A DNA stretch of 23,913 nt, taken from positions 1 through 23,913 of the forward strand of contig JAHQXB010000058.1 of NCBI GenBank assembly GCA_029856435.1. The letters are read 5' to 3'. The DNA is from Candidatus Jordarchaeia archaeon (GTDB taxonomy: Archaea; Asgardarchaeota; Jordiarchaeia; Jordiarchaeales; Jordiarchaeaceae). The position numbers were made by a program, and so were the translations under genes. Position 1 is the stretch's first letter, and every line of letters starts with the position of its first letter. The notes beneath the pieces were generated by a model. The model was not told the origin of the DNA. It worked only from the letters and a program-made list of their open reading frames with translations, and ran no database searches. Of the stretch, positions 4,465 to 20,654 are shown piece after piece.

Positions 4465-4493
4465 TTTTAGATGTGGAAGAGAGAGGATTAACA

Positions 4494-6239
4494 ATGAGTA
4501 AGAAAAGTAAGGCAAAGCCCAGCGAGGCAAAGAAAGCAGCAAAAGCTGTGAAGCCTAAAGAGAAGGAGTTACCGGACTACATTAAGAATAGGATTTGGCT
4601 GAAGAATTACCCTCCAGACTTGCCCAAAGAGGTTAAGATACCAGCTGATAAGTCGATACCCGAACTTGCGGAGGAAGCCACAGACAAGTGGCCCAACTCT
4701 GTAAACATAATATTCTATGGAAGAGAATTCACTCGAAAAGAGTTTAAGGACTACATTGACAGACTCACCACGGCATTCCAAAAAAACCTGGGAATCAAAA
4801 AGGGAGACAAGATAGCCATATATCTGCCAAACTGTCCCCAATTCATCATAGCATACATGGCAGGACTGGCAGCGGGAGCCACCATGACCTGCATCAGCCC
4901 CCTATTTGTACCCCGAGAATTAGCTTACCAGTTAAAGGACAGCGGAGCAGAAACCCTAGTAACCATGGACATGTTCTACAACAATGTGGGACAAATAAGA
5001 AATGAGGTTAAACTAAAAAACATCATCATCACAAACATAATGGGACAAACGCCCAGTGTACCCGAAAGCGTGGATCAAGGAATATTCCACATGACAAACC
5101 TAATCAAAGACACTGCCCCCGACGTAACAAGGGTAAAAATCAATCCCAAAAAGGACATTGCAGTAATTCAATACACTGGAGGCACAACAGGTATGCCCAA
5201 AGGTGCACTCCTCACTCACTACAACCTCATAGCCAACGCCCACCAAATCATACCCATAACAGAAGCATTAAAAAAGAGGTTCAACGAGGAGCGAGTGAGG
5301 TCAATAAGCGTACTGCCCTGGTACCACATATACGGACAAACCTGCGAAATAATTGCGGGAAACCTCATAGACTCAACCGCGGTGCTTTTCGCCAGGTTTG
5401 ACCCGGGAGACATTCTTGATGCCATTAACAAGTATAAACCCTGGCTATTCTTAGGAGTTTCAGCTTTGCTCATAGCACTCATGAACCACCCCAAGGCCCA
5501 AGAAACGGATTTCAGCTGCCTCAAATACGTAAACATGGGAGCCGCCCCAACCCCAGACGAGGTTGCAAGGCAGTGGAAAAAGTTATCTGGACACCCGCTG
5601 AGCGAAGGCTACGGGCTAACAGAAACCAGCCCTGTAACCCATACCCGCCCCGCCCAACTTTTCGGCGAAAAACTGGGCAGCATCGGCCCACCGGTTCCCA
5701 ACACGCTGGCAGGCATAGTAGACCCCGAAACCAATGAGTTTCTACCCATAGGTGAACTGGGAGAACTGGTGATCAGCGGTCCCCAAGTGATGCTTGGTTA
5801 TTATAACAGACCTAAAGACACCGAAGCAGTCTTCTTTGAGGCAGGAGGATACAAGTGGCTCAAAACCGGAGACCTAGCCCGAATGGATGAAGACGGATAC
5901 TTCTATATCGTTGACCGCACCAAAGACATAATAAAATATAAGGGCCACAGCGTTTACCCCAGAGAAATTGAGGAGGTTATATTTGAGCACCCCGCAGTGC
6001 TGGAATGCGCAGTTATAGGTGTACCCGACCCTGAGGCAGGAGAAAATATAAAAGCGTACATATCGCTAAAGCCAGATTATAAGGGTAAAATAACGGAGGA
6101 GGAGATGAAGAACTGGATTAAGGAACGGGTTGCTGCCTACAAGTATCCCCGATATGTGGAGTTTATAGACGTTATCCCCAAGACCATCGTAGGCAAAGTT
6201 CTGAGGAGGGCACTAAGAGAAAAAGAGTCCAAAAAATAG
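4494..6239 (+). CDS. Long-chain acyl-CoA synthetase / AMP-forming acid-CoA ligase, paralog 1
   Basis: AMP-binding motifs QYTGGTTGMPKG, EGYGLTE, LKTGDLARMDEDGYFYIVDRTKD and C-terminal PKTIVGKVLRR. Start placed at ATG 4494. Confidence 0.95.
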   Translation: MSKKSKAKPSEAKKAAKAVKPKEKELPDYIKNRIWLKNYPPDLPKEVKIPADKSIPELAEEATDKWPNSVNIIFYGREFTRKEFKDYIDRLTTAFQKNLGIKKGDKIAIYLPNCPQFIIAYMAGLAAGATMTCISPLFVPRELAYQLKDSGAETLVTMDMFYNNVGQIRNEVKLKNIIITNIMGQTPSVPESVDQGIFHMTNLIKDTAPDVTRVKINPKKDIAVIQYTGGTTGMPKGALLTHYNLIANAHQIIPITEALKKRFNEERVRSISVLPWYHIYGQTCEIIAGNLIDSTAVLFARFDPGDILDAINKYKPWLFLGVSALLIALMNHPKAQETDFSCLKYVNMGAAPTPDEVARQWKKLSGHPLSEGYGLTETSPVTHTRPAQLFGEKLGSIGPPVPNTLAGIVDPETNEFLPIGELGELVISGPQVMLGYYNRPKDTEAVFFEAGGYKWLKTGDLARMDEDGYFYIVDRTKDIIKYKGHSVYPREIEEVIFEHPAVLECAVIGVPDPEAGENIKAYISLKPDYKGKITEEEMKNWIKERVAAYKYPRYVEFIDVIPKTIVGKVLRRALREKESKK

Positions 6240-6261
6240 GGGCAACTAGTTCCAATACAAC

Positions 6262-6276
6262 TTTTTTTGATTTTTT
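6262..6276 (+). terminator. Oligo-T terminator-like tract after acyl-CoA synthetase 1
   Basis: TTTTTTTGATTTTTT begins 22 nt after the stop; archaeal termination commonly occurs at oligo-T tracts. Confidence 0.4.
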
Positions 6277-6495
6277 CAAAGGGAGACGCAAAATTGTTCG
6301 ACTCCTAAAAAAAGGGAGCTTTTAATGAGACCTTTTAGATTTAAAATCTCTCGAGTGAGAAACAGAGTCCAAAACCTCTACATCTCCTTCAAGTGATTTA
6401 TGGGAAACTAAAAATTGTTTTTGAACAGGGCAGAGGTATTCTGGAGGATTTTGGAGACTTGTTTATGACTTGACAAGGAAGCGTGGGCCCGGGTG

Positions 6496-6508
6496 AAAAG
6501 GTTAAAAT
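6496..6508 (+). promoter_or_regulatory. Putative BRE-TATA promoter of acyl-CoA synthetase 2
   Basis: AAAAGGTTAAAAT about 55 nt upstream of ATG 6564. Confidence 0.35.
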
Positions 6509-6563
6509 CTATATGTATTCAATTTATACTAGAGAATATGTAATTAAAGGGTGGATTCTTTGC

Positions 6564-8261
6564 ATGTTTAGATTTAAATCGAAACTTCCGGACTATGTTA
6601 AAAAGAAGATATGGTTGAAGAGTTACCCTCCAGATTTCCCAAAGAAGATTAAGATTCCCAAGAAGTCTTTGCCCGAGGTGTTCAGGGAAGCGGCGGAAAA
6701 GTATGGCGACGAGGTTAGTCTCATTTTTTATGATAAAGAGTATACTCGCAAACAGATTATAGATTGGTCTGACAGGTTGGCTACCGCCCTCCACAATATG
6801 GGTGTAAGAAAGGGTGACGTGGTGGCGATTTATTTACCTAACAGTGTACAGTTTTTGGTGGCATACTATGGTATCCTAGCAGCAGGAGCTACGGTCACTG
6901 CCATAAGCCCCCTTTTCGTGCCACGTGAGGTCGCCTTCCAGCTAAAAGACAGCGGAGCAAAAACCATAATCACAATGGACCTCTTCTACGAAAACGTGAA
7001 ACAAATTAAAGACGAAACCCCTCTGAAAAACATTATTGTGTGCAACATTATGGGGGAGAAGCTCCGAATCGAAAAAGAAGACCTAGAAAAAGTAATAAAT
7101 TACCACGAGCTAATTGAGAAAACTCCGCCCAACCCTCCAAAAATAAGGATAAACCCCACAGAGGACGTGGCAGTGCTGCAGTACACTGGTGGAACAACCG
7201 GTCTACCAAAAGGTGCCATGCTCACACACTACAACATTTTAGCTAACGCCCTGCAAGTGGTTCCCATTACGGAAACTTTAAACAAAAGGTTGGGCATTAA
7301 TAGAACTATTGCCATTTCGGTGTTACCATGGTACCACAGCTATGGTCAAACAGTGGAAATTGTCGCAGGCGCCCTACTTAATAATCTTGGCATATGTTTC
7401 TCCCAGTTTGACCCCGCCCCCATTCTTGAGGCAATCCAGAAATATAGGCCCAACACCTTTATTGCAGTTCCCGCAATTTTGATTTTGTTGTTGAACCACC
7501 CCAAGTCCCGTGAAGTTGACTTTACCTGTCTAAAGTACTTTAATATGGGCGCCGCACCCACTCCTGTGGAGCTAGCTAGACAGTGGAAACAGTTGTCAGG
7601 TAATCCTCTAAGCGAAGGTTACGGGTTGACCGAAGCCAGCCCAGTGACCCATAGCCGATGCGCCCAGCTTTTTGGCGAAATTCTGGGCTCAGTTGGCCCC
7701 CCCATTCTGAACACCCTAGCGGGAATAGTGGATCCAGACACCAACGAGTTCCTACCCATTGGGCAGCTGGGTGAACTGGTGGTCAGCGGGCCTCAAGTAA
7801 TGAAGGGCTACTGGAAACGCCCCGAGGAGACAAAAAAGGTGTTCTTTAAGGCTGGTGGCGTAACTTGGTTAAAGACTGGCGACCTTGCCCGTATGGACGA
7901 GAATGGCCACTTCTACATCTTGGATCGCACCAAAGACATAATAAAATACAAGGGTCACAGCGTCTATCCGCGGGAACTCGAAGAAGTACTGTTTACCCAT
8001 GAAGCAATCATGGATGCGGCAGTGATTGGCGTGCCTGACCCCGATGTGGGCGAACAAATTAAGGCCTTTGTAGTCTTGAAGCCGGAATATAGGGGCAAAG
8101 TCACGGAGGATGACATACTATACTGGTGTAAAGAACACATGGCAGCCTTCAAATATCCCAGATATGTAGAGATTGTGGAGTACCTTCCAAAGAGCATGGT
8201 GGGTAAAACTTTAAGAAGAGTGCTCAGAGAGCAAGAAGCCCAAAGGACGGCGGAATCCTAA
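6564..8261 (+). CDS. Long-chain acyl-CoA synthetase / AMP-forming acid-CoA ligase, paralog 2
   Basis: QYTGGTTGLPKG, EGYGLTE, KTGDLARMDENG and PKSMVGKTLRR; colinear with paralog 1. Start placed at ATG 6564 after SD-like AGGGTGG. Confidence 0.95.
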   Translation: MFRFKSKLPDYVKKKIWLKSYPPDFPKKIKIPKKSLPEVFREAAEKYGDEVSLIFYDKEYTRKQIIDWSDRLATALHNMGVRKGDVVAIYLPNSVQFLVAYYGILAAGATVTAISPLFVPREVAFQLKDSGAKTIITMDLFYENVKQIKDETPLKNIIVCNIMGEKLRIEKEDLEKVINYHELIEKTPPNPPKIRINPTEDVAVLQYTGGTTGLPKGAMLTHYNILANALQVVPITETLNKRLGINRTIAISVLPWYHSYGQTVEIVAGALLNNLGICFSQFDPAPILEAIQKYRPNTFIAVPAILILLLNHPKSREVDFTCLKYFNMGAAPTPVELARQWKQLSGNPLSEGYGLTEASPVTHSRCAQLFGEILGSVGPPILNTLAGIVDPDTNEFLPIGQLGELVVSGPQVMKGYWKRPEETKKVFFKAGGVTWLKTGDLARMDENGHFYILDRTKDIIKYKGHSVYPRELEEVLFTHEAIMDAAVIGVPDPDVGEQIKAFVVLKPEYRGKVTEDDILYWCKEHMAAFKYPRYVEIVEYLPKSMVGKTLRRVLREQEAQRTAES

Positions 8262-8831
8262 AGTACATTCATTTCTCTATCTTTTTTTCAACTATAAAAG
8301 TAGTGAAATCCATTTTAGGAGTTAAGCCATAATTTAGTATATTTAGCCTGTGGACGCATTGGTTATCAACATGGTGTTCTGTTCCTAGTTTGCGGTGATT
8401 CTTTAATTAAGGTTGGGAAGAGCAGAGATGGAGTTGATCTCTCCTTGTTACGATCCAGCTTAATGCCTGTTTGGATGGTTTGCCTTTAGCGATGTGTGCT
8501 GCAGAGCTCTGAGTGCTGGTTCTAACAACATTTTACAATAAGTCGGCCCTATTCCCAGTTTTTTGAATGAATATGCGTGTTATATTTAAATATTGTTTTT
8601 GCCCACTTTTCTAAGACGGTGCGTGATCTTTAAGTGTTGGGTCTGCTATGGCTCTCGAAAACCCGTTTGGTGCAGGATTGCTTTGAGGGATTTCGCATGC
8701 ATCACAGAATATATATTTGGAAATCAGACATTAATAAGGTGTGGCTAGAAACTTGTTCGCTAGCCTCAAAATACATTTGAAGGTAAAACTACCAATAAAG
8801 TTTGTTTTCTATATTTTAGGTGGTGTGTTTT

Positions 8832-9632
8832 ATGCCCAAGTTTGAAACTGTCTTGTACGAGAAAAGGGGTGGTGTGGCGGTTATCACACTTAACCGTCCT
8901 GAGAAGTTGAATGCTTTGAATTCTCAGATGAATAAGGATTTAAAGTATGCCTTTAGGGAGGCTAGGGATGATCCTGAGGTTCGGGTGGTTGTGCTCACTG
9001 GGGCTGGTAGAGGTTTCTGCTCTGGAGCGGATATTTCAGACTTCGCCGGTGGGGTTACCCTTGAAGATTTTAGGAGGATGACTGAGCAGGGTGTAGTGCC
9101 TGAAACCATCATTACACCATATGATTTGATTGATGTGCCTAAACCCATCATTGCGGCGGTTAACGGTGTGGCTGTGGGTTTCGGTATGAATGTTCTTCTA
9201 AACTGTGACATCATCATAGCTTCTGAGGCGGCCAGTTTTGGAGAGTTCTTCATAAGAATGGGGTTAATTCCAGATATGAATGGAAGTTTACTGCTTCCCA
9301 TGCTGGTGGGAATTCATAAGGCTAAGGAGCTTATTTTCACTGGTGATAGAATAAGTGCTCAGGAAGCCTTGCGAATAGGATTAGTGAACCGGGTGGTTCC
9401 CCCTGACGAGTTGATGCCTACTGTGATGGAACTGGCAAATAGGTTAGCTGAGGGGCCTCCGCTAGCGCTGGCGATGTCTAAGAAGCTTATCCATGAGGGT
9501 TTCAGAAAAATTTTCGACGAAATGATTGTGAAGGAAGTCCAATATCAAGCCAAGCTTTACGCCTCGGAGGACCATAGGGAGGCTGCCCTAGCTTTTCTGG
9601 AAAAGAGGAAACCTGTTTTTAGGGGAAAATAG
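8832..9632 (+). CDS. Crotonase-superfamily (enoyl-CoA hydratase/isomerase) protein, PaaG-like residue pattern
   Basis: ITLNRPEKLNAL, GRGFCSGADI, KPIIAAVNG and EALRIGLVNRVV. The canonical Glu positions are N and F, and GLIPD carries an Asp. Start placed at ATG 8832. Confidence 0.92.
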   Translation: MPKFETVLYEKRGGVAVITLNRPEKLNALNSQMNKDLKYAFREARDDPEVRVVVLTGAGRGFCSGADISDFAGGVTLEDFRRMTEQGVVPETIITPYDLIDVPKPIIAAVNGVAVGFGMNVLLNCDIIIASEAASFGEFFIRMGLIPDMNGSLLLPMLVGIHKAKELIFTGDRISAQEALRIGLVNRVVPPDELMPTVMELANRLAEGPPLALAMSKKLIHEGFRKIFDEMIVKEVQYQAKLYASEDHREAALAFLEKRKPVFRGK

Positions 9633-9666
9633 AATTTTCCGACCTCTATCCCTTTTTCTTTATGCC

Positions 9667-10416
9667 CTATTTCTCTTGTTTGTTTTGGGTTTGGTTTTGG
9701 ATTCCTAGAAACTTGTAGAGGGTTTTTTTGAGTTCGGGGAACCCTTTGGCCACGGCTTGGGCTCCATATTTGTTTCCGTTGGTGCTTTCTTGCCAGTCTA
9801 TCCATATGGAGTCTATGCCGGCGGCCCTAGCTCCTTTTATATCGGTTTCTTGATTGTCTCCCACGTGGACTGCTTGTTGCCTTTTGATGTTTAGTCTTTT
9901 CAGGACTTCTAGGAAGGGTTGGGGACTGGGTTTGGCTTCGGGACTTGTTTCTCCCGCAACTACTAGGATGTCAAAATAGTCTGCTAGGCCGGAGGCTTGG
10001 AACCTTTTTTCCTTCCATCCCGGGGCGAAGTCTGTGTCGCTGAGTAGGGCCAGTTTGTATCCTTTCTGTTTAAGCTCTTTTAAGAGCTCCGGTGCTCCTT
10101 CATAGATTGTGGTGGTGTCTTTTAGTATTTCCCAATAAGTGTTGGTTAGTTTGGTGATGAAGTCCTGAGAGACGTCAGTTACATTGTACTCTTTTAGGAT
10201 TTGTTTCCACCATTCGTCTCTGCTCCGTGACAGCCTTTTTTCCCTCTCCTCCTCGGTTTTTATCACCTTTTTCAGTATGGTTTCATAATCTGCGTCTATT
10301 CCTCTGCTTTTTAGGAACTCAGTTATGAGCTCAGCCACCTTCCTGTGGGAGTGTATACGATTGCTAAAGGAGTCTACGAGAGTTCCATCAAAGTCAAATA
10401 TTACAAGTTTCTTCAA
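9667..10416 (-). CDS. HAD-superfamily hydrolase (subfamily IA)
   Basis: Motif I FDFDGTLVD, motif II LLSD, motif III AKPSPQPF and motif IV HVGDNQETDIKGA. Confidence 0.93.
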   Translation of the reverse strand: MKKLVIFDFDGTLVDSFSNRIHSHRKVAELITEFLKSRGIDADYETILKKVIKTEEEREKRLSRSRDEWWKQILKEYNVTDVSQDFITKLTNTYWEILKDTTTIYEGAPELLKELKQKGYKLALLSDTDFAPGWKEKRFQASGLADYFDILVVAGETSPEAKPSPQPFLEVLKRLNIKRQQAVHVGDNQETDIKGARAAGIDSIWIDWQESTNGNKYGAQAVAKGFPELKKTLYKFLGIQNQTQNKQEK

Positions 10417-10939
10417 TTCTTAATCCCCTTCATTTTTAGCCTTAAAATAATTAATATGCTCTATCAAATGGGAATCGTAACCATTTAAACCTTGCGAGGG
10501 AAAAAACATCAAAAAATAAAACTAACTTCCCAATTGAGACACGGTGAAACCAGAAGAATCCAAATATTGAAAAAAAAGAGAAGCAGAAAAATAAGTTCGG
10601 CAAACCCAAAAAAGGGGGAGGATGCAGCGTCCACTAGTCGGGATAACAATCCAACCACAATACTGCGGGCAGTAGAATCCAAGGATGCGTTGGCATGGAA
10701 AATATCCCGGATTTACCTAAAATTTTTAGCTCGACAATGTTAAATTTGTTTTATTGTAACCTGTTTCCTATCCGATTTCCTCTCCTCTACGCCCTGGAAG
10801 AAAGGATTTTCTACCACTTAGTAGCGCCAGATACGGGAACCGAATCAATTTAACATTTCGAGTTAGGGTTAAAATTTTAATAATGTGCTCATCATTGTAC
10901 TTTCAATTTAAGTATTATCGGAATGCTGGATGTGGCAAA

Positions 10940-12781
10940 ATGTCTATGAAGAATGGTAAAATTCTCCGGGTAAACCTCACCACGAAGGATATAACTACCG
11001 AGAATATTGATTCAGGTGCTGCTAGGAGTTTTTTGGGTTCCAAGGGTTTAGCAGCCTACTACTTGTTTAAAGAGCTGAGACGGGGAGTTGACCCGCTAAG
11101 CCCCGAAAACAAGCTGGTCTTTATGACCGGCCCCCTAACGGGCACTAAGGCTCCCTCGTCCTGTCGATTTGTGGTTTGCACAAAATCTCCACTAACTGGT
11201 GCTTGGGTGGATAGCAGTTGCGGCGGGTTCTGGGGGCCAGAACTCAGATTTGCGGGCTTCGATGGTATCATAGTTGAAGGGAGGGCGGAAAGCCCAGTCT
11301 ATATTCATATAAGTGATGGTGAAGCTTCCATAAGGGATGCAGGTTTTCTGTGGGGAATGGGTACAATAGACACCATAAGCTACCTTAGGGAGAGACATAA
11401 GTCGGATAGAACCGTTAGGGTAGCTACCATTGGGCCAGCTGGTGAGAAGCAGGCTAGGTTGGCAGCAGTTATTGCAGATATGAGGGCGGCTGGCAGAGGG
11501 GGAACAGGTGCAGTTATGGGTTCCAAGAAGCTTAAGGCCATATCAGTTGTGGGTCACGGAAAGGTTCCCATAGCCGATCCGCAGAAATTTAACAGTTTAG
11601 CAAAAGAGGCGCATAAGGAGAATAAGGAGGACAGTGCAAGAATGGCCGCAATGGGTACCGCCTCAATCGTGAAGCTGGTAAACTCTACTGGCGGCTGGCC
11701 TACCAGAAACTTTAGTGAAAGCCAGTGGGACGAGGCGGCTGAGGAACTAGCCGGAGAAACCTTTCAGAAAACTCTATGGGGCGGAGGAAAATATGTGAAG
11801 CCCTGCTACAACTGCCCCATAAGATGCGCCCACCTAGCAGTCATAAGAGAGGGAAAATACGCAGGCATTTCCGATGAAGGACCAGAGTATGAAACCATTT
11901 CCCTGTTTGGGCCCAACTGTGGAATAAAGAGCAGAGAAGTAATCACGGTGGCAGACAGGATGTGCGACAATTACGGCATTGACACCATATCTTTGGGGAA
12001 CACTATTGGTTTCGTTATGGAGTGTGTGGAGAGGGGACTGGTTAGCTTGGAGGAGATTGATGGGGTGGATTTGAGGTTTGGAAACGAGGAAGCGTTCCTT
12101 AAAGCGGTAAACATGGCGGGAAATGTTTACGGTAATCTTGGGAGGCTCCTCGCCAACGGAGTTAAGCGGGCGGCGGAAAAAATCGGTAAGGGTTCCGAAA
12201 AATTTGCCATGCACGTCAAGGGATTGGAAATACCGGCTTATGTTCCAAGAGCTGGGCATGGACACGCCCTAGCTTATGCGGTTGCGGATCGTGGAGCTTG
12301 CCATCTTAGACCCTGGCTTTATGGTGCGGAGCACTTTTTCGGAAAGTTGAATCCCAGTACTACTGAGGATAAGCCGGAAGCGGTTAAGCTGGGACAGCAG
12401 AACCGGGCTTTAATCCACAGCAGTGGACTCTGCCAGTTCGCGGTTAGTGAGGATATGCTTTATGAATCTTTGCTTCAGATGATAAACGCCGCAACTGGTT
12501 TTAACTATACTGTGGATGAGTTTCGATTGGTAGGTGAGAGAATAAATAATTTAACTAGGAGTTTTAATTGTCGGGAGGGATTCACAAGTAAGGATGACAC
12601 ACTTCCTTATCGCTCCACAAATGAGCCGTTACCCACGGGGCCCCAGAAGGGTCAAGTTATTAGACTCAGTGAGATGTTGCCAGAATATTATAGGGTCTGC
12701 GGGTGGAGCGAGGACGGTGTTCCCACCAAAGAAAAATTAGAGGAACTGAGGTTGGATTTCGTCATCGAAGACCTATATTAA
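10940..12781 (+). CDS. aor: Aldehyde:ferredoxin oxidoreductase family (tungstopterin, [4Fe-4S])
   Basis: KSPLTG, GRGGTGAVMGSKKLKA, CYNCPIRC, EGPEYET, DNYGIDT, RGACH and GLCQF. Start placed at ATG 10940. Confidence 0.93.
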   Translation: MSMKNGKILRVNLTTKDITTENIDSGAARSFLGSKGLAAYYLFKELRRGVDPLSPENKLVFMTGPLTGTKAPSSCRFVVCTKSPLTGAWVDSSCGGFWGPELRFAGFDGIIVEGRAESPVYIHISDGEASIRDAGFLWGMGTIDTISYLRERHKSDRTVRVATIGPAGEKQARLAAVIADMRAAGRGGTGAVMGSKKLKAISVVGHGKVPIADPQKFNSLAKEAHKENKEDSARMAAMGTASIVKLVNSTGGWPTRNFSESQWDEAAEELAGETFQKTLWGGGKYVKPCYNCPIRCAHLAVIREGKYAGISDEGPEYETISLFGPNCGIKSREVITVADRMCDNYGIDTISLGNTIGFVMECVERGLVSLEEIDGVDLRFGNEEAFLKAVNMAGNVYGNLGRLLANGVKRAAEKIGKGSEKFAMHVKGLEIPAYVPRAGHGHALAYAVADRGACHLRPWLYGAEHFFGKLNPSTTEDKPEAVKLGQQNRALIHSSGLCQFAVSEDMLYESLLQMINAATGFNYTVDEFRLVGERINNLTRSFNCREGFTSKDDTLPYRSTNEPLPTGPQKGQVIRLSEMLPEYYRVCGWSEDGVPTKEKLEELRLDFVIEDLY

Positions 12782-12894
12782 CACGCCAAAATTGTCCCTA
12801 CCTTAATTTTTACTTCATAATTTCATTTTTTAGGGAGGGTTCATTGCCGTTTATTTCCCATTTTTACACGTGATATTTATTCTATATTTTTATG

Positions 12895-12909
12895 CAAAAA
12901 TTTTTATCC
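12895..12909 (+). promoter_or_regulatory. Putative BRE-TATA promoter of the thiolase-fold/DUF35 operon
   Basis: CAAAAATTTTTATCC about 45 nt upstream of ATG 12950, inside a 168-bp gap that also has T-rich tracts. Confidence 0.35.
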
Positions 12910-12949
12910 TTAAAGGAATAACTGATAGCTAAAAGTTTGAGGAATTGGG

Positions 12950-14098
12950 ATGACAAAAGCTGTTGCTATAGTTGGTTTAGGTCAGACTGAAAGCAGGGCT
13001 TTAACACCCACACAGGATTTTAGGGAACTCATTTACAGCGCGGCAAAGAAGGCCTACGATGACGCAGGTTTAACCCCCAGAGACATTGATGCACTTTTAA
13101 CTAATGAGTATGACTTTTATGCGGGTATAAGCATTGCTGATGAGTACACTCCAGACCAGGTTGGTGCCAGGCTCAAATTTGACAACTTGGTTTGTAACGA
13201 TGCAACAATTGCCTTCATAAATGCCTACATGCTTATTCTGAGCGGCGCCGCAGATATAGTGGCCGTTGAGTCAAACTCCAAGGTTGCAACCGACGTTGTT
13301 AACTATCCTGAGGTTTTGCTGGCAGCCCTAGACCCAGTTTACAACAGACCGCTGGGTGGACACCCCTACTACATTGCGGGAATGGACATGATGAGCTATC
13401 TTGAAAACACTGACACCACCGAAGAGCAGATTGCCAGGGTTGTGGTTAAAAACAAGGGCAACGCGCTACTTAACCCGAACGCAGGCTTTGGAGCTAAACT
13501 CACAGTTGAGGATGTGTTAAGGTCTGAATACGCGTTCTGGCCTATTAAACTCTTAGAAATCGCCCCCTTAGCTGACTATGCTGCCGTGGTTCTCCTAGCA
13601 GCCGAGGAAAAAGCGAAATCCATTACGGATAATCCAGTTTGGGTTACTGGTGTGGGGCATGCCACAGATTCAAGCTACATTGAGTGTTGGCCTTGGGGTG
13701 AAGCCCAGTGGATAAGAAATGCTTCACAGGAAGCCTACAAAATGGCGGGAATAAGTGAACCCTGGAAGGAAATTAACGTGGTGGAAATATCAGAAGCCTT
13801 CGCATACCAAGAACTGCAGGCCCTAGAAGCACTGAGGATTTCAAGCGGTTCCCCAGGGAATTTGTTGGAAATGGGCACATTTGATTTGGATGGTAGCCTA
13901 CCAGTAAATCCTTCAGGAGGCTGCCTAGGCATGGGCTACACTCCGCAAGCCACAGGACTCCAGAGAATAGCGGAGATTGCCCTACAGCTACGTGGAGAAG
14001 CGGGAAAGAGGCAGATTCCAGAAGCGGAGGTCGGCGTTGCTGTGGGGAGCGACTCTGAAATCATAAAGTGTGGAGGAGTTGTGATACTTTCGAGGTGA
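12950..14098 (+). CDS. SCP2/SCP-x-type thiolase-fold protein, Ltp4-like, non-canonical active site
   Basis: Thiolase fold (VAIVGLGQT, VVKNKGNALLNP, PVNPSGG). GGCLGMGYT has Tyr where thiolases have GHP His. Confidence 0.85.
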   Translation: MTKAVAIVGLGQTESRALTPTQDFRELIYSAAKKAYDDAGLTPRDIDALLTNEYDFYAGISIADEYTPDQVGARLKFDNLVCNDATIAFINAYMLILSGAADIVAVESNSKVATDVVNYPEVLLAALDPVYNRPLGGHPYYIAGMDMMSYLENTDTTEEQIARVVVKNKGNALLNPNAGFGAKLTVEDVLRSEYAFWPIKLLEIAPLADYAAVVLLAAEEKAKSITDNPVWVTGVGHATDSSYIECWPWGEAQWIRNASQEAYKMAGISEPWKEINVVEISEAFAYQELQALEALRISSGSPGNLLEMGTFDLDGSLPVNPSGGCLGMGYTPQATGLQRIAEIALQLRGEAGKRQIPEAEVGVAVGSDSEIIKCGGVVILSR

Positions 14099-14104
14099 TA
14101 AGGA

Positions 14105-15301
14105 ATGGCGTTTGAAAATATGGTTAGATTCCCTAAAGGATTTTCTAAGAGGAAAAGGGTGGCCATTGTTGGTGCAGGTATGACTGATTTCCGCTCCATA
14201 CTGCCTCACACCACTAGGGAACTATGCTTCGAAGCTTCAAAGAGGGCACTTGACTCCTGCGGCCTCACACCTAAGGATGTAAAGGCGGTTATCGGTGCCT
14301 CAGCTCCAGATGCCTTTGACGGCATACATATTAAGGGCTGGAACCCAGTTGACGCTATGGGTGCTGTGGGAAAACCCTACGCTCGAGAGTTTGTGGGAGG
14401 CGGGACAGGCGTTGGCTGCATAGTAAACGGCTGGTACTACGTAGCCTCAGGCCTATATGACATTGTGCTGGTTTGTGCCTTTGAAAAAATGTCGCCTCCA
14501 GTCCCCCACGCTCAGAAACTGTTCCTAACAATATTTGAACCCATACTGGAGTGGGCACTAGGACCCAACTTGGTATGGATCTTCGCTCAGGAGATGAATC
14601 GATACATGACCACTTGGGGAATTAAGAAGGAAACCATCGCTCTATCCGCAGTGAAAAACAAGGGCAACGCAATGGATCACCCCCACGCACAGTTACCCAT
14701 GAAAATCACAGTGGAGGACGTTTTGAACTCGCCCATACTTGTTTGGCCGGTGAACAGGCTGGACATCAGCCCCTCTTCTGACGGCGCGGCAGCCATTGTA
14801 CTGGCATCGGAGGATGTTGCCAAAAGGATAACGGATACACCGGTTTGGATTGATGGTGTGGGAATGTGTATCGATAGTCAGTATTGGACCAATAGAGATC
14901 TCGCCTTTCCCTATTATGTGTACTATGCTTCACAGCAGGCTTACCGGATGGCGGGGATAAGCGATCCTATGAAGGAGATTGATGTCTGGGAGCCCTACGA
15001 CCCCTTTGACTATAAGGAGTTGCACCACTTGGATGGGCTGATGGGTAAGAAAGGCTATGCTCCAAAGCTTCTTGCTGAGGGGCAGCTTGCAAGAGATGGC
15101 GACTATCCCTCGTGTCCTTCGGGTGGACTTCAGGGTGTGGGTAACCCTATAGCTGCTGCGGGAACTATGAAGGTCTGTGAGATATACTGGCAGCTGAGCA
15201 ACCAGGCGGGAAAAAGACAGGTTGACGATGCTAAAATAGGGATAGCTCAGGCTTGGGGTGATTTGATGCAGGTGGCAACTGTTGTTGTATGTAGAACATA
15301 G
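14105..15301 (+). CDS. SCP2/SCP-x-type thiolase-fold protein, Ltp3-like, non-canonical active site
   Basis: VAIVGAGMT, AVGKPYAREFVGGGTG (no Cys at the nucleophile site), DISPSSDGAAA, EPYDPFDY and GGLQGVGNPIAAAG (His replaced by Asn). Starts 6 nt after the previous stop, SD GAGGTG. Confidence 0.88.
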   Translation: MAFENMVRFPKGFSKRKRVAIVGAGMTDFRSILPHTTRELCFEASKRALDSCGLTPKDVKAVIGASAPDAFDGIHIKGWNPVDAMGAVGKPYAREFVGGGTGVGCIVNGWYYVASGLYDIVLVCAFEKMSPPVPHAQKLFLTIFEPILEWALGPNLVWIFAQEMNRYMTTWGIKKETIALSAVKNKGNAMDHPHAQLPMKITVEDVLNSPILVWPVNRLDISPSSDGAAAIVLASEDVAKRITDTPVWIDGVGMCIDSQYWTNRDLAFPYYVYYASQQAYRMAGISDPMKEIDVWEPYDPFDYKELHHLDGLMGKKGYAPKLLAEGQLARDGDYPSCPSGGLQGVGNPIAAAGTMKVCEIYWQLSNQAGKRQVDDAKIGIAQAWGDLMQVATVVVCRT

Positions 15302-15313
15302 GAGGTTGAGTCT

Positions 15314-15985
15314 ATGAGTAAAAAGCAAGTTAAAGTTGTGGCTATGGTTGACCAATGGGAGAAGTTTCTGAAGCATCTTCCACCAGACCTGAAAAAGTTC
15401 TACCAGAAATTGGATATTACCCAGTCTCCAAGTAAAAAGGGACAAATAGAGAAGGACTTGGAAGAGAAGGGGTTAATGACACACATCCCAAACTGGAAGC
15501 TTGACAATGGCATCTATCTTGGAAACTATAGGCTGCAATTCAATTATTCTAGAACCGCAGGACATGCTATTGGAACCTTTCTTAATGGTTTGAGGGAGGG
15601 CAAAATACTGGGCAGAAAGTGTCACACCTGTGGCAGGATTCTTGTTCCCCCAAGGATGTTCTGTGAGTGGTGTTTCAGGGAAACTGACCAGTGGGTGGAA
15701 GTGGCAGATACGGGCATAGTTGGAACATATTCCGTTTCATACATTACAGCCGACCCCAAGGTGAGGCTGGAGAAGCCAATTATAAGCGGTGTGGTGTGGC
15801 TGGATGGAACCAAGCTTGAAACACCATCATCAAAGACTGTGAGACACTGGGGAGGCTTCATGCACTACTTCGACGAGGTGACTCCGGAGAAAATCAAGAT
15901 TGGAATGAAGGTGAAGGCAGTTTGGGAACCTCCAAATAAGAGGAGGGGCTCCATACTGGATATAAAATACTTTAAACCGGTGTAA
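15314..15985 (+). CDS. DUF35 (Zn-ribbon + OB-fold, ChsH2/BbsA-like) protein with ~70-aa N-terminal extension
   Basis: KCHTCGRILVPPRMFCEWC, GIVGTYSV and KIGMKVKAVW...GSILDIKYFKP; SD GGAGGT. Confidence 0.92.
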   Translation: MSKKQVKVVAMVDQWEKFLKHLPPDLKKFYQKLDITQSPSKKGQIEKDLEEKGLMTHIPNWKLDNGIYLGNYRLQFNYSRTAGHAIGTFLNGLREGKILGRKCHTCGRILVPPRMFCEWCFRETDQWVEVADTGIVGTYSVSYITADPKVRLEKPIISGVVWLDGTKLETPSSKTVRHWGGFMHYFDEVTPEKIKIGMKVKAVWEPPNKRRGSILDIKYFKPV

Positions 15986-15995
15986 GGTGGATGTG

Positions 15996-16478
15996 ATGAC
16001 TGAACCAAACAAACCTCCTTATGTTGGAGTGAATACACTCCACTGGACGGAGAGTAACATTGACAACTATTATGAGTATCCTGCTGGGTTCGCTGGCTCC
16101 AAGTTTTTCCACGAGTTAAAAGAGAATGGAAAAATTGTGGCGAGCAGGTGCAAGAAGTGTGGGAAAATGGAACTTCCTCCTAAGGCCTTCTGCGTGGACT
16201 GCTTCGATACTGAAATAGAGTATGTGGAAGTGGATTTGCCGGGATTCGTCTATACTTACAGTGTTTCCTTTTACGATTTGGATGGCTCCAAGCTTGAGAA
16301 ACCCATAATTTGGGCCCTCATCGCCTTTGAGGAGGCGGAGGGCGGAATCATTCATAGGTTGGGTGAAGTGGAGCCAGAAGAAGTCTACGTGGGAATGGAT
16401 GTAGTACCAGAGTTTAGACCAAAGGAAGACCGCACGGGAAGCATACTCGACATCAAGTACTTCAAGCCAACTGTTTAA
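15996..16478 (+). CDS. DUF35 (Zn-ribbon + OB-fold) protein, paralog 2
   Basis: RCKKCGKMELPPKAFCVDC, GFVYTYSV and VGMDVVPEF...GSILDIKYFKP. Start placed at ATG 15996. Confidence 0.92.
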   Translation: MTEPNKPPYVGVNTLHWTESNIDNYYEYPAGFAGSKFFHELKENGKIVASRCKKCGKMELPPKAFCVDCFDTEIEYVEVDLPGFVYTYSVSFYDLDGSKLEKPIIWALIAFEEAEGGIIHRLGEVEPEEVYVGMDVVPEFRPKEDRTGSILDIKYFKPTV

Positions 16479-16580
16479 TAACTTCATCTCCCCACTTTTT
16501 TCTGGGAAATCCTTTTTTACTTCCTTTTATAGTGGTTGGAAAGCTAAAATATTAACTGTTGAAGGAGTTATTTAGGAAAA

Positions 16581-17168
16581 TTGAAGTCTGAAGAAATTAT
16601 TGTGTGTGTTGAAAATACTGGAAGTGGCTTTCGAATTTTTCCTATGGAGAGGGAGGAAGCCCACAGAAGGGGAGTAAAGCACCTTGTGGTTAGAATCTTG
16701 GGATTCAACAGGGAGGGGATGCTCCTTGTTCAGAAGAGAGCTCTCACCAAAAAGAGCCACCCTGGAAAATATACTGACAGTGCAAGCGGACATGTTTTGT
16801 ACGAGGATGACTTTAGCTTTAGGACCATAATGAAGAGTGCGGAGAGAGAACTCTGGGAGGAAATGGGAGTAAGGGGAATACTAAAACTCTACCTGGAACA
16901 GAAGTTTGACCATGAAGACCTGGAGTTAAACTATGTTTTTCTTGCACTCATAGAAGGGGAACCCCGATTCAACGAGGAGGTGGAAGCTGAAAGTAGCGGA
17001 TTCAAAACCGTGGAGCAGCTCAGACACATGCTCAAAAACGAGAAGTTCGTGTATTTCGCAAAAGAGTTGTGGGAAAAATTTCTTGCCGATTATCCAACTA
17101 CGGAAGCCATAAAAAAATTGGCGGAATCCCTGGGAAAAGCTCACGCTAGAAAAGACGGGGAAAATTAG
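16581..17168 (+). CDS. NUDIX-domain protein related to type-1 IPP isomerase
   Basis: HRRGVKH, LLVQKRA, KKSHPGKYTDSASGHV and AERELWEEMG; TTG start after SD-like AGGAG. Confidence 0.85.
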   Translation: MKSEEIIVCVENTGSGFRIFPMEREEAHRRGVKHLVVRILGFNREGMLLVQKRALTKKSHPGKYTDSASGHVLYEDDFSFRTIMKSAERELWEEMGVRGILKLYLEQKFDHEDLELNYVFLALIEGEPRFNEEVEAESSGFKTVEQLRHMLKNEKFVYFAKELWEKFLADYPTTEAIKKLAESLGKAHARKDGEN

Positions 17169-18045: not shown

Positions 18046-20013
18046 TTGGAGGTGCCAACAATTAAAGAACTAATAAGTAGGGAAAAAGGCAAAAAAGTTG
18101 TGATGCTCGGGAACGAAGCCATGGCTCGAGGCGCACTAGAAGCTGGAATCGGCTTCGCAAGCACCTACCCCGGAACACCAGCCAGCGAAGTAGGAGACAG
18201 CATAGCCCAAGTAGCCGAACAAATACCAGGACTAACCTTCCAGTACTCCACCAACGAGTACGTGGCGCTAGAAAACGCCATAGGAGCCAGCTGGAGTGGA
18301 GTCCGAGCACTATGCGCTATGAAAATGGTGGGTATGAATGTTGCTGCTGATCCTCTGTTTACTCTTGCATATAGTGGTGTTACACCCACTGGCGGCCTCG
18401 TTATTATTAATGGTGGAGATCCCGCTGCGTTATCTAGTACTAATGAGCAGGATAATCGTTACTACGGCTTGCACGCCCGCATCCCTGTGGTGGAGCCAGC
18501 GAGTGTGCAGGAGAGCAAGGACTTTGTGGTTGAGGCGTTCAACATTTCTGAGAAATTCGATGTGCCCGTTATCGTGAATAGCACTGCAAGGGCCTGTCAC
18601 GCTGTGGGTGTAGTGGAGCTTGGAGAACTCAGGGATCCACCCAAAGAGGGACGTTTTGTTAAAAACTGGTCCAAGTACTATAACACTCTGGTTCTTGCAG
18701 TTATGAATCACCAGAAACTGATTAACAATCAAAACAAGATGATAAATGAGTACGCCCCAGTCACCAAACTAAACACCATACTGCCTGGCGACTCCAAAAC
18801 TGGAATCATAACTTCGGGAATGTCCTACAATTACACCTTGGAGGCTCTAGACGTTCTGGGAATATACGATGTGCCTATTCTGAAGCTGGGTTTGGTTTAT
18901 CCTCTTTCTCCAAAGCAAATTGTGGACTTCGCCTCAAAGCTGGAGCAGATTATTATTATGGAGGAACTCGACCCCTTCCTGGAGGGCGAGGTGAAAAAGA
19001 TAGCCTATGATCAAGGGCTGGAAATCCCCATAAGGGGAAAGGAGCTTTTCCCAGCAACTGGTGAACTAAACACCGATATTGCGGTGCAGGCTTACGCCAA
19101 GGTGTTCGGAAAAATTCCACCCATAGATATGAACGAGGTGAACTTGAAGGCTTTGGGTGCTTCAGCCATTCTGCCTATGAGAACCCCCACCATGTGTCCG
19201 GGCTGTCCCCATAGAGCAACCTACTATGCAATTAAGAAGGCCATTGAGGGCAAGAATTATGACGTAGTGTGGGCTAACGACATTGGCTGCTACGCGACGG
19301 GGGCTCTACCGCCTTTCCAGATGGGTGACTTTATGACTTGCATGTCTGCAGGCGAGAGCATCGCGGCGGGTATGAGCTATAAGGCGAAGAGCCAAAAGAT
19401 GGTAGCCTTCATTGGTGACTCAACCTTTCTACACACGGGAATCCCGGGGCTGCTAAATGCTGTGTGGAATGATGCAGACCTTCTCCTTGTAATAATGGAT
19501 AACCGTTGGACCGCTATGACCGGCCATCAACCCACCCCGGCGTCAGGTGTTAACTGGTCTGGGAAGCAAGCTAAGGCTGTGAGTATTAGAGACATAGTGT
19601 CTGCGCTGGGTGTGGACTATGTTCGGGTGGCGGATCCCTTCAACGTTAAGAACGCCATTGCCATATTTGAGGATGCACTGAAGAGAACCGGTGTGCGCGT
19701 AGTCATCTCCCAGCAGGAATGCCTTCTTGAAGCTAGGAGACGCAACAGAGCAGTCATAGAGGAAAAGAGAGAGAAGGGTGTAAGGCAATATATTGATGTT
19801 AATGAGGATGCTTGCATATTCTGCGAGGAGTGCATCAAGGAATTCGGCTGCCCAGCTTTGACCGTGGCCGAGTTTGAGGGAGAAAAGGTTTCCCACATAG
19901 ACCTGTCTAGGTGTGTAGAGTGTATGGTGTGCAAACAGCTCTGCAAGGGCTGCGCCATCACTGTCACAAAGGTCTGGCCTGGAACAACCATTCTGGAGGA
20001 AGGTAAGAAGTGA
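18046..20013 (+). CDS. iorA: Indolepyruvate:ferredoxin oxidoreductase alpha subunit
   Basis: LGNEAMARGALEAG, YPGTPASE, CPGCPHR, DIGCY, TPP motif GDSTFLHTG and a C-terminal 2x[4Fe-4S] domain (CIFCEEC...C, CVECMVCKQLC). The start could be GTG 18052. Confidence 0.95.
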   Translation: MEVPTIKELISREKGKKVVMLGNEAMARGALEAGIGFASTYPGTPASEVGDSIAQVAEQIPGLTFQYSTNEYVALENAIGASWSGVRALCAMKMVGMNVAADPLFTLAYSGVTPTGGLVIINGGDPAALSSTNEQDNRYYGLHARIPVVEPASVQESKDFVVEAFNISEKFDVPVIVNSTARACHAVGVVELGELRDPPKEGRFVKNWSKYYNTLVLAVMNHQKLINNQNKMINEYAPVTKLNTILPGDSKTGIITSGMSYNYTLEALDVLGIYDVPILKLGLVYPLSPKQIVDFASKLEQIIIMEELDPFLEGEVKKIAYDQGLEIPIRGKELFPATGELNTDIAVQAYAKVFGKIPPIDMNEVNLKALGASAILPMRTPTMCPGCPHRATYYAIKKAIEGKNYDVVWANDIGCYATGALPPFQMGDFMTCMSAGESIAAGMSYKAKSQKMVAFIGDSTFLHTGIPGLLNAVWNDADLLLVIMDNRWTAMTGHQPTPASGVNWSGKQAKAVSIRDIVSALGVDYVRVADPFNVKNAIAIFEDALKRTGVRVVISQQECLLEARRRNRAVIEEKREKGVRQYIDVNEDACIFCEECIKEFGCPALTVAEFEGEKVSHIDLSRCVECMVCKQLCKGCAITVTKVWPGTTILEEGKK

Positions 20014-20654
20014 AAAAGATTAACGTCTATATTTGTGGAGTTGGGGGACAGGGCACAATGACTCTGGGACAGCTTTTGAAGGAGGCCGGTCTCGTTGATG
20101 GTTTGGTGGTTACTGGTACTGAGTCTCGTGGCGCTTCGCAGCGTGAAGGTGCAGTAGATAGCCATGTGAGGTTCGCTGTTTTGGAGAAGGGTGAAAAGTT
20201 TAATGAGCGTAAGAGTATCCATTCTCCCCTTATTCCCATTCGGCAGGCCCAATTGTATTTGAGCATGGAGATGGCTGAGACTCTGCGAAACATCAAGTAC
20301 GTTGCAGAGGACGGCATAATCATCATGAATAACTATGAGATTTGGCCTCCTCAGGTTAGGACTGGCGAGATGCCCTACCCTTCGCTGGACAAAGTTGTGG
20401 AGAACTTGAAACAATTCAGTAAAAACGTGTACGTAGTTAATGCAAATAAGCTGTCTGAAGAAAGGTACGGTGACTATTCGGGGGTTAACATGATTTTTCT
20501 GGGTATAGCTATGGCTACGGGTAAGATTCCAGTTAGGGTTGAAACCTTGGAGAAAGTTATTCGGGAGCGAATGTGGAATCCGGAGAAAAGCATTGAACAG
20601 TTCAGGTTTGGCTTAGAAGAAGGAAAAAAGATTCTAGCAGCGGGACCAGCATAA
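20010..20654 (+). CDS. iorB: Indolepyruvate:ferredoxin oxidoreductase beta subunit
   Basis: GVGGQG, GASQREGAVDSHVR and NMIFLG; GTGA overlap with the iorA stop. Confidence 0.93.
   Translation: MKKINVYICGVGGQGTMTLGQLLKEAGLVDGLVVTGTESRGASQREGAVDSHVRFAVLEKGEKFNERKSIHSPLIPIRQAQLYLSMEMAETLRNIKYVAEDGIIIMNNYEIWPPQVRTGEMPYPSLDKVVENLKQFSKNVYVVNANKLSEERYGDYSGVNMIFLGIAMATGKIPVRVETLEKVIRERMWNPEKSIEQFRFGLEEGKKILAAGPA

Follow-up and report, generated by a model that had tools for sequence, protein, structure and literature searches.

Thiolase-fold enzymes that lack the nucleophilic Cys and pair with a DUF35 protein are known from steroid degraders. In Pseudomonas Chol1 and Comamonas, Sal1/Shy1, Sad and a CoA ligase act on the C5 side chains of bile acids by aldolytic cleavage to a free aldehyde, followed by oxidation and re-activation (PMC8399759; PMC12329534). 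Sal, an enzyme of the SCP2-thiolase fold, cleaves a secondary 3-hydroxyacyl-CoA to acetyl-CoA and an aldehyde; the aldehyde is converted to the acid by an NAD-dependent aldehyde dehydrogenase (ALDH), and the acid is re-activated with ATP. Ltp2–ChsH2 (T. curvata, 6ok1; M. tuberculosis) also combines a thiolase fold with a DUF35 partner, follows an acyl-CoA dehydrogenase (ACAD) and a hydratase, and releases propionyl-CoA and a ketone. Both enzymes carry Gly at the thiolase Cys position and use a Tyr as base, that of YDHF in Ltp2 and that of YDCY in Sal; protons are donated in Ltp2 by a second Tyr (Tyr344, besides the His at motif position 3) and in Sal by the motif Cys (PMC12329534). Here we describe a four-gene module, thlA-thlB-DUF35a-DUF35b, which lies directly downstream of a gene for aldehyde:ferredoxin oxidoreductase (AOR) in a Candidatus Jordarchaeia archaeon. 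The window, that is the whole stretch analyzed, is one entire contig (C157, 23,913 bp) of a 3.54-Mb metagenome-assembled genome (97.8% complete; genome label G000). An original prediction had combined its CoA ligases, crotonase, thiolase-fold genes and AOR into an aldolytic, ferredoxin-reducing alternative to beta-oxidation. The logic of such a pathway is already known from the Sal-Sad-ligase system of bile-acid degraders.

Sal (9myr) is a homodimer with its DUF35 domain fused to a MaoC hydratase. In contrast, the window encodes a pair of dissimilar thiolase-fold subunits, two DUF35 proteins that are not fused, a YDPF motif and a presumably tungsten-dependent AOR that would work with ferredoxin, in an anaerobic archaeal host. 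Ltp3 and Ltp4 of actinobacterial sterol clusters have been proposed to be aldol-lyases with an adjacent DUF35 gene. There, too, two adjacent and different thiolase-like genes have a CoA ligase (fadD19) and a crotonase (echA19) in their vicinity, and they are known only genetically (Wilbrink 2012, cited in PMC6273163). Matches of thlA and thlB to NCBIfam 'lipid-transfer protein' models were weak, with scores far under the cut-offs. The closest solved relatives of thlB belong with the archaeal thiolase/HMG-CoA synthase/DUF35 complex (6et9), in which DUF35 is the scaffold of thiolase-fold dimers, and pairs like the ketothiolase (KT)/DUF35 fatty-acid synthase of S. acidocaldarius are numerous in Asgard genomes (bioRxiv 10.1101/2024.07.05.601840). 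In these archaeal systems the thiolases retain the catalytic Cys and His for a Claisen reaction, of which thlB would be incapable. Feruloyl-CoA hydratase/lyase with vanillin dehydrogenase is similar in its CoA-dependent, non-beta-oxidative chain shortening via an aldehyde. However, the lyase there has the crotonase fold, whereas in the window the candidate lyase is a thiolase-fold protein and the crotonase is without the hydratase residues. The heteromeric thlA/thlB core with two free DUF35 proteins and a YDPF/GNP active site would be new here. So would the very broad spread in anaerobic Archaea and Bacteria and, for a few Asgard lineages, the use of a tungsten AOR together with ferredoxin or flavodoxin instead of an NAD-dependent ALDH. 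A literature search for AOR, Asgard and thiolase found nothing, and one for anaerobic thiolase-like retro-aldolases returned only the steroid literature.

The module and the gene upstream of it were annotated as follows:

10883–12781, + strand: AOR, aldehyde:ferredoxin oxidoreductase of the AOR sensu stricto type (AFOR_N + AFOR_C)
12782–12949, no strand: AOR-thlA spacer of 168 nt, in which a T-run precedes an AT-rich, TATA-like stretch (sequence inspection)
12950–14098, + strand: thlA, thiolase-fold subunit (Thiolase_C_1)
14105–15301, + strand: thlB, Cys-less thiolase-fold subunit (Thiolase_C_1; PRK06065)
15314–15985, + strand: DUF35a, zinc ribbon and OB fold (zf-ChsH2 + OB_ChsH2_C), starting 12 nt after thlB
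15987–16478, + strand: DUF35b, zinc ribbon and OB fold (zf-ChsH2 + OB_ChsH2_C), starting 1 nt after the DUF35a stop

The active site of thlB was compared with the P. furiosus thiolase 7yvy in a HMMER alignment. The nucleophilic Cys is replaced by Gly99, HDAF by Y298-D-P-F and GHP by G-N347-P. Across 29 homologues of several phyla, with a mean column identity of 73%, the Gly, YDPF and GNP were invariant. In the partner thlA, the column equivalent to the nucleophile varied among 62 orthologues (S32/G8/T7/A7/P5/C3). Here SEAF (consensus DDxF) stands in place of HDCF and G-Y-T in place of GHP, and the other motif positions are variable too. As judged from these motifs a true thiolase is excluded, since thlB is without the nucleophilic Cys and both catalytic His, and none of these is conserved in thlA. 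The objection attached to the original prediction, that the complex might be a true thiolase, thus found no support. The identity across loci was 36–52% for thlA and 58–72% for thlB. With PRK06065, 'thiolase domain-containing protein', thlB scored 573.8 bits (NCBIfam cut-off 455), whereas thlA stayed under the cut-off of PRK06066 (364 against 516 bits). Taken from sequence, thlB is likely the catalytic lyase subunit, and thlA is probably a degenerate partner and scaffold without conserved catalytic residues.

The signature of Ltp2 and Sal, Gly at the nucleophile position and a Tyr opening Y-D-x-F, is found in thlB, an equivalence that rests on the 7yvy alignment and on PMC12329534. With Pro at motif position 3, thlB appears to be a third variant beside these two enzymes. 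By analogy, an aldolase-like lyase activity is plausible. The two DUF35 genes follow thlB directly and are free-standing, with no MaoC fusion. DUF35a has an N-terminal extension of ~90 aa without a Pfam match, and its orthologues in other lineages measure ~180 aa. An archaeal HMG-CoA synthase was considered and rejected, as neither thlA nor thlB gave such a Pfam or NCBIfam match and no catalytic Cys is conserved. The GNP motif recalls the Asn of Cys-His-Asn condensing enzymes, and a decarboxylase of the KS/CLF kind is left as a bare idea.

Based on these comparisons, we lean tentatively, and with a confidence a little short of even, towards a conserved non-thiolytic lyase operon whose coupling to AOR is facultative and lineage-specific. 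In such an operon, thlA and thlB would form a heteromeric thiolase-fold complex held by the two DUF35 proteins, as in Ltp2-ChsH2 and Sal-Shy. As thlB has no acyl-accepting Cys, the C-C bond would most likely be cleaved or formed without a covalent intermediate. The likeliest reaction would be the retro-aldol cleavage of a 3-hydroxyacyl-CoA to acetyl- or propionyl-CoA and a carbonyl compound, with Tyr298 as the putative base and thlA as the degenerate partner. The 3-hydroxyacyl-CoA would be supplied elsewhere by an ACAD and a hydratase. In the genus of the window, an AOR of the P. furiosus type would have been inserted recently, directly upstream of the module. Where the product is an aldehyde, it could be oxidized to the acid by AOR with ferredoxin, and the acid possibly be re-activated by the ligases. 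Coupling to AOR would then be a specialized branch for certain substrates and not a replacement of beta-oxidation.

The distribution of the module was analyzed in a scan of GTDB species representatives with the module family, in which at least 600 stretches matched and 592 were confirmed among the matches listed. The order thlA-thlB-DUF35a-DUF35b, with gaps of 1–12 nt, was intact in ~75 of the best 80 loci. These span Bathyarchaeia, Nitrososphaerota/Caldarchaeales, several Asgard classes, Actinomycetota, Krumholzibacteriota, WOR-3, 'Deltaproteobacteria' and Symbiobacterium. Within Asgard archaea the thlB orthologue was single-copy in 55 of 400 genomes, distributed over 22 of 85 genera. The module is an old, horizontally mobile operon. 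For the analysis of its neighbors 125 module loci were mapped (80 from GTDB, 40 from Asgard genomes and 5 from contig look-ups, with a few duplicates). An ACAD was the commonest gene within 3 kb (40 loci), followed by BKACE, the beta-keto acid cleavage enzyme (15), a true thiolase (14), the large subunit of a B12-dependent acyl-CoA mutase (11) and an AMP-forming ligase (7). AOR was found at this distance in 5 loci, of which 4 are non-duplicate, and an NAD-dependent ALDH lay near the module in none of the 125. The stable context of the module is hence acyl-CoA dehydrogenation and not aldehyde oxidation. Bathyarchaeia loci such as L050, L056, L057 and L063 carry, behind the module, genes for a B12-binding subunit, for a large subunit resembling methylmalonyl-CoA mutase, for MeaB and for a corrinoid adenosyltransferase. 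A relative with a 77%-identical thlB (L173, 3774–5529) has electron transfer flavoprotein (ETF) beta and alpha directly after DUF35b. In many genomes of one Asgard family (f20; L150–L168) BKACE lies convergent and directly downstream of the module.

We then consider AOR. The window protein matched P. furiosus AOR 1aor with 3e-145 and A. aromaticum AOR 8c0z with 3e-124 and is covered at full length by AFOR_N and AFOR_C. On this basis it is assigned as a bona fide AOR-type enzyme. Different AOR paralogues stand co-directional next to the module in three Asgard genera, namely in the genus of the window (g1; G000 and G010), in a Hodarchaeota genome and in g55. The Hodarchaeota locus (L049, 6638–16758; the same place as L133) reads methyltransferase-thlA-thlB-DUF35a-DUF35b-SCP2-FeADH-AOR-flavodoxin-SCP2 in one direction, with a divergent ACAD upstream. 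The iron-type alcohol dehydrogenase (Fe-ADH) and the flavodoxin of this operon point to an aldehyde intermediate there. Two arrangements were found in g55. In G272, AOR starts 157 nt after the module and an AMP-ligase comes 63 nt after AOR; in G278 the order is module, one small opposite-strand ORF, AOR and SCP2. Looser cases, at 3–7 kb, were seen in genus g53 and on Caldarchaeales-like contigs. The four module-linked AORs are 38–45% identical to one another, no closer than unlinked paralogues, and the Hodarchaeota and G278 copies are the only two of them that group together in the AOR tree. Thus, at least three AOR lineages were placed beside the same module. If ~8 AOR genes are spread uniformly over 3.2 Mb and the 22 genera are treated as independent, ~0.1–0.2 co-directional AOR placements within 3 kb are expected and 3 were observed; this is a rough estimate rather than a permutation test. 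Since metabolic genes cluster, this recurrence is suggestive only.

Within the genus of the window the arrangement could be followed at higher resolution. Of the 5 other genomes of the genus, 4 have an orthologue of the window AOR (86–95% identity), and among the 394 Asgard genomes from outside the genus none has one. G008 and G009 keep the order TPR-lig1-lig2-crotonase-HAD-(URO-D-like)-AOR at 88–92% nucleotide identity to the window, and in both the homology stops at the AOR stop codon. G007 keeps crotonase-HAD-AOR on a short contig, and the AOR of G010 is not preceded by the ligase block. The URO-D-like gene (uroporphyrinogen decarboxylase/methyltransferase family) lies between HAD and AOR in G008 (L126, 8521–9690) and G009 (L127, 6737–7903) and is absent from the 467-nt HAD-AOR spacer of the window. 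Between the AOR stop and the NUDIX gene (window positions 12782–16580) a cassette was swapped. G000 and G010 carry the four-gene module here. The same slot in G007, G008 and G009 (L128, L126, L127) holds a convergent, unrelated pair of a 442-aa thiolase-fold protein and a 242-aa DUF35 protein; the former has Gly at the Cys position and keeps HDAY and GHP. In G007 the NUDIX orthologue follows this alternative cassette. Because of the T-run and TATA-like stretch in the spacer and the genus-level break-point at the AOR stop, AOR and the module are probably transcribed separately, the module from its own promoter. Rather than a single pathway operon, the region is a mosaic of units that were inherited separately.

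A number of observations weigh against a lyase operon coupled to AOR. On the side of the enzyme, motif position 3 of thlB is an invariant Pro, so that the proton donors of Ltp2 and Sal both appear to be missing. In phmmer, archaeal thiolases (7yvy, 1e-48) come closer to thlB than Ltp2 does (6ok1, 1e-16). The AF2 model of thlB has the thiolase fold (pLDDT 77), and in Foldseek all thiolase-fold classes matched it at TM 0.74–0.81, with thiolases at ranks 1–5, Sal at 26 and Ltp2 at 35. As the classes match about equally, the fold cannot tell an aldolase from a thiolase. Furthermore, the very high conservation of thlB across domains suggests one fixed substrate, possibly one that yields a ketone. 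On the side of the linkage, the module adjoins the AOR orthologue only in G000 and G010, and 3 of the 5 AOR-bearing genomes of the genus are without the module. A genome of another family (G005) has the module at 71–82% identity and no orthologue of the window AOR; its best AOR match is 44% identical and on another contig, and the AOR paralogue on the module contig is 41% identical and ~65 kb away. A 93%-identical thlB ('Promethearchaeota archaeon', NCBI) on an 18.9-kb contig has no AOR within 6–10 kb. In 2 of the 10 module-bearing genomes searched, both of unstated completeness, no AOR-family gene was found. The second Cys-less cassette in the same slot is weak evidence, because most thiolase-fold genes of the genome are Cys-less. 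Finally, chance adjacency is not rare given the many AOR, crotonase-like, thiolase-fold and ligase-like ORFs of this genome. Continued linkage of aor, the thiolase-fold/DUF35 set and the ligases across genomes had been named as a test of the original prediction. With AOR within 3 kb in just 4 non-duplicate loci, the AOR linkage is not conserved, and ligase block and module are separable. In favor of a coupling, AOR placement beside the module recurs in three genera, once with an AMP-ligase after AOR.

The other features of the window were determined with Pfam and NCBIfam:

1275–2174, − strand: BKACE, beta-keto acid cleavage enzyme (Pfam BKACE), ~10 kb upstream of the four-gene module
4473–6239, + strand: lig1, AMP-forming acyl-CoA ligase of 588 aa (Pfam AMP-binding + AMP-binding_C)
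6483–8261, + strand: lig2, tandem paralogue of lig1 (AMP-binding), ~63% identical to it
8820–9632, + strand: crotonase-fold protein, PaaG/isomerase-like (Pfam ECH_1)
9667–10416, − strand: HAD-type phosphatase on the opposite strand (Pfam Hydrolase/HAD_2)
16581–17168, + strand: NUDIX hydrolase (Pfam NUDIX), right-hand border of the swapped cassette
18046–20654, + strand: iorA/iorB, indolepyruvate-type 2-oxoacid:ferredoxin oxidoreductase (POR_N, TPP_enzyme_C, Fer4 and POR domains)

The full order is BKACE(−), TPR(−), TPR(−), lig1(+), lig2(+), crotonase(+), HAD(−), AOR(+), the module(+), NUDIX(+), a Cys-rich ORF(+), iorA(+), iorB(+) and SHMT(−). The top NCBIfam matches of lig1 were long-chain fatty-acid-CoA ligase models, every one under its cut-off. 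No Rfam match was obtained in the window at gathering thresholds, and the 560-nt gap between lig2 and the crotonase contains short, spurious-looking ORFs only. A scan for sigma-70 promoters and terminators gave the same counts as shuffled sequences, the model being not applicable to archaea. The gene list of the original prediction (ligases, crotonase, HAD, AOR, thiolase-fold pair, DUF35 genes) was confirmed. So were its cautions that the crotonase is not a canonical hydratase, that a minus-strand HAD gene interrupts the run between crotonase and AOR, and that AOR and the aldolase genes may be transcribed separately. Whole-genome family searches placed no ACAD and no 3-hydroxyacyl-CoA dehydrogenase (HADH) on the window contig, and thlB was its sole Thiolase_N match. 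The absence of ACAD, HADH and canonical thiolase from these 24 kb, as first noted, is therefore real. As the window is one entire contig, this absence says little and is no evidence for an alternative pathway.

Elsewhere in the genome, the family searches detected 13 ACAD, 7 HADH, 3 canonical thiolases and 6 SCP2-type thiolases with Cys, so that full conventional beta-oxidation sets are present. The genome totals 10 AOR paralogues, 24 crotonase-like, 23 thiolase-fold and 15 AMP-ligase-like ORFs. Among the 23 thiolase-fold ORFs tabulated, the 3 canonical thiolases being outside this table, Cys, HDCF and GHP are kept in the 6 SCP2-type proteins only. About 7 adjacent heteromeric pairs combine a 'Y-x-P / NP' subunit with a loop-deleted 'SE(A/P)F' subunit. 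The thiolase capacity of Asgard genomes may thus be overstated where 'ketothiolase/DUF35 pairs' are counted. The window crotonase had T. thermophilus PaaG (6sl9/6slb) as its top PDB matches. It has Asn and Phe where C. acetobutylicum crotonase 5z7r has its two catalytic Glu. The protein has Asp in a P-D motif where chain 6sla reads Asn and the otherwise identical 6sl9 reads Asp. With TIGR02280 it scored 216.8 against a cut-off of 345, and every NCBIfam match was under cut-off. From these residues we assign it as PaaG/isomerase-like and not as a canonical hydratase. A PaaG-like crotonase is thus present in an anaerobic archaeon, with a 70%-identical paralogue on contig C177.

The likeness to the archaeal thiolases by sequence and fold, together with the NCBI name 'thiolase domain-containing protein', would suit a normal thiolase/DUF35 pair of the kind that serves mevalonate or fatty-acid synthesis in archaea. 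This is already contradicted by the motifs of both subunits, and we give it practically no credence. A far more serious alternative is that the neighborhood is coincidental and that the module yields no AOR substrate, for example because it releases a ketone from a tertiary 3-hydroxy-3-methyl- or 2-methyl-branched acyl-CoA, a cleavage proposed for Ltp3/Ltp4 and demonstrated for Ltp2, with AOR and IOR serving aldehydes of amino-acid 2-oxoacids. In the peptide fermentation of Pyrococcus, AOR acts on aldehydes derived from amino-acid 2-oxoacids. In line with coincidence, iorAB lies 5 kb downstream in the window, rearrangement break-points flank AOR on both sides within the genus, and just one of the ten AORs of the genome is near acyl-CoA genes. 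The module is accompanied mainly by ACAD, BKACE, thiolase and the B12 mutase set rather than by AOR, and the product of Ltp2 is a ketone (PMC8399759). Co-directional AOR paralogues of such low identity in three genera, plus Fe-ADH and flavodoxin in the Hodarchaeota operon, are hard to explain in this way without an aldehyde link. We regard coincidence as quite possible, albeit doubtful.

The cycle originally predicted runs from acid to CoA ester, 3-hydroxy ester, aldehyde and acetyl-CoA, then to acid with reduced ferredoxin and to re-activation, repeated in place of beta-oxidation. It can draw on a ligase, AOR and a non-thiolase lyase candidate within 12 kb, on the single run of module, AOR and ligase in G272 and on the Sal-Sad-CoA ligase precedent (PMC8399759). 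However, a cluster in the style of Sal-Sad-ligase was not found, as the contig has no ACAD or hydratase and AOR linkage is rare. The crotonase is without the catalytic Glu pair, conventional beta-oxidation genes are abundant in the genome, and sister genomes show that ligase block and module can be separated. AMP-forming re-activation after each cleavage would cost about two ATP equivalents per acetyl-CoA gained, more than the acetyl-CoA returns; the same energy argument was made for Sal in a review on bile acids (PMC8399759). Due to this cost, a repeated cycle is unlikely as a bulk catabolic route, whereas a single specialized cleavage is feasible. A general alternative to beta-oxidation is therefore very improbable, and a specialized aldolytic step feeding AOR is possible. 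Equally little weight is given to the reverse, anabolic use, in which AOR would reduce an acid to the aldehyde and the module would add acetyl-CoA by aldol addition, giving a 3-hydroxyacyl-CoA and a thiolase-independent elongation that avoids the endergonic Claisen condensation. AOR reactions are reversible, and ACAD/ETF neighbors could serve as enoyl-CoA reductases. KT/DUF35 pairs, which have been proposed to act in fatty-acid synthesis, are also numerous in Asgard genomes (bioRxiv 10.1101/2024.07.05.601840). Yet the cluster has no dehydratase or reductase, there is no direct evidence for this direction, and AMP-forming ligases are better suited to catabolism. Overall, the original prediction is supported in part: the complex is not a true thiolase, and AOR recurs beside the module in three genera. 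Its conserved linkage, hydratase step and full cycle are not supported.

A wider version of the lyase operon, which we consider unlikely, would make the module a widespread heteromeric acyl-CoA aldolase that in several Asgard lineages is wired to AOR, with flavodoxin/ferredoxin, Fe-ADH, SCP2 and a CoA ligase, for ferredoxin-linked chain shortening or reverse elongation. In Asgard archaea, thiolase-fold/DUF35 pairs rank with the most expanded sets of enzymes, and they are now read as ketothiolases, which backs fatty-acid ideas on the origin of eukaryotes. If the wider version is true, many Asgard 'ketothiolase/DUF35 pairs' counted for fatty-acid synthesis would not be thiolases. The family accounts for ~590 stretches among the matches listed in the species-representative scan, with a catalytic subunit that is predicted to be incapable of thiolysis. 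Should the module prove to be an aldolase and to exchange its aldehydes with AOR, it would add a further entry or exit for low-potential electrons in anaerobic acyl-CoA metabolism.

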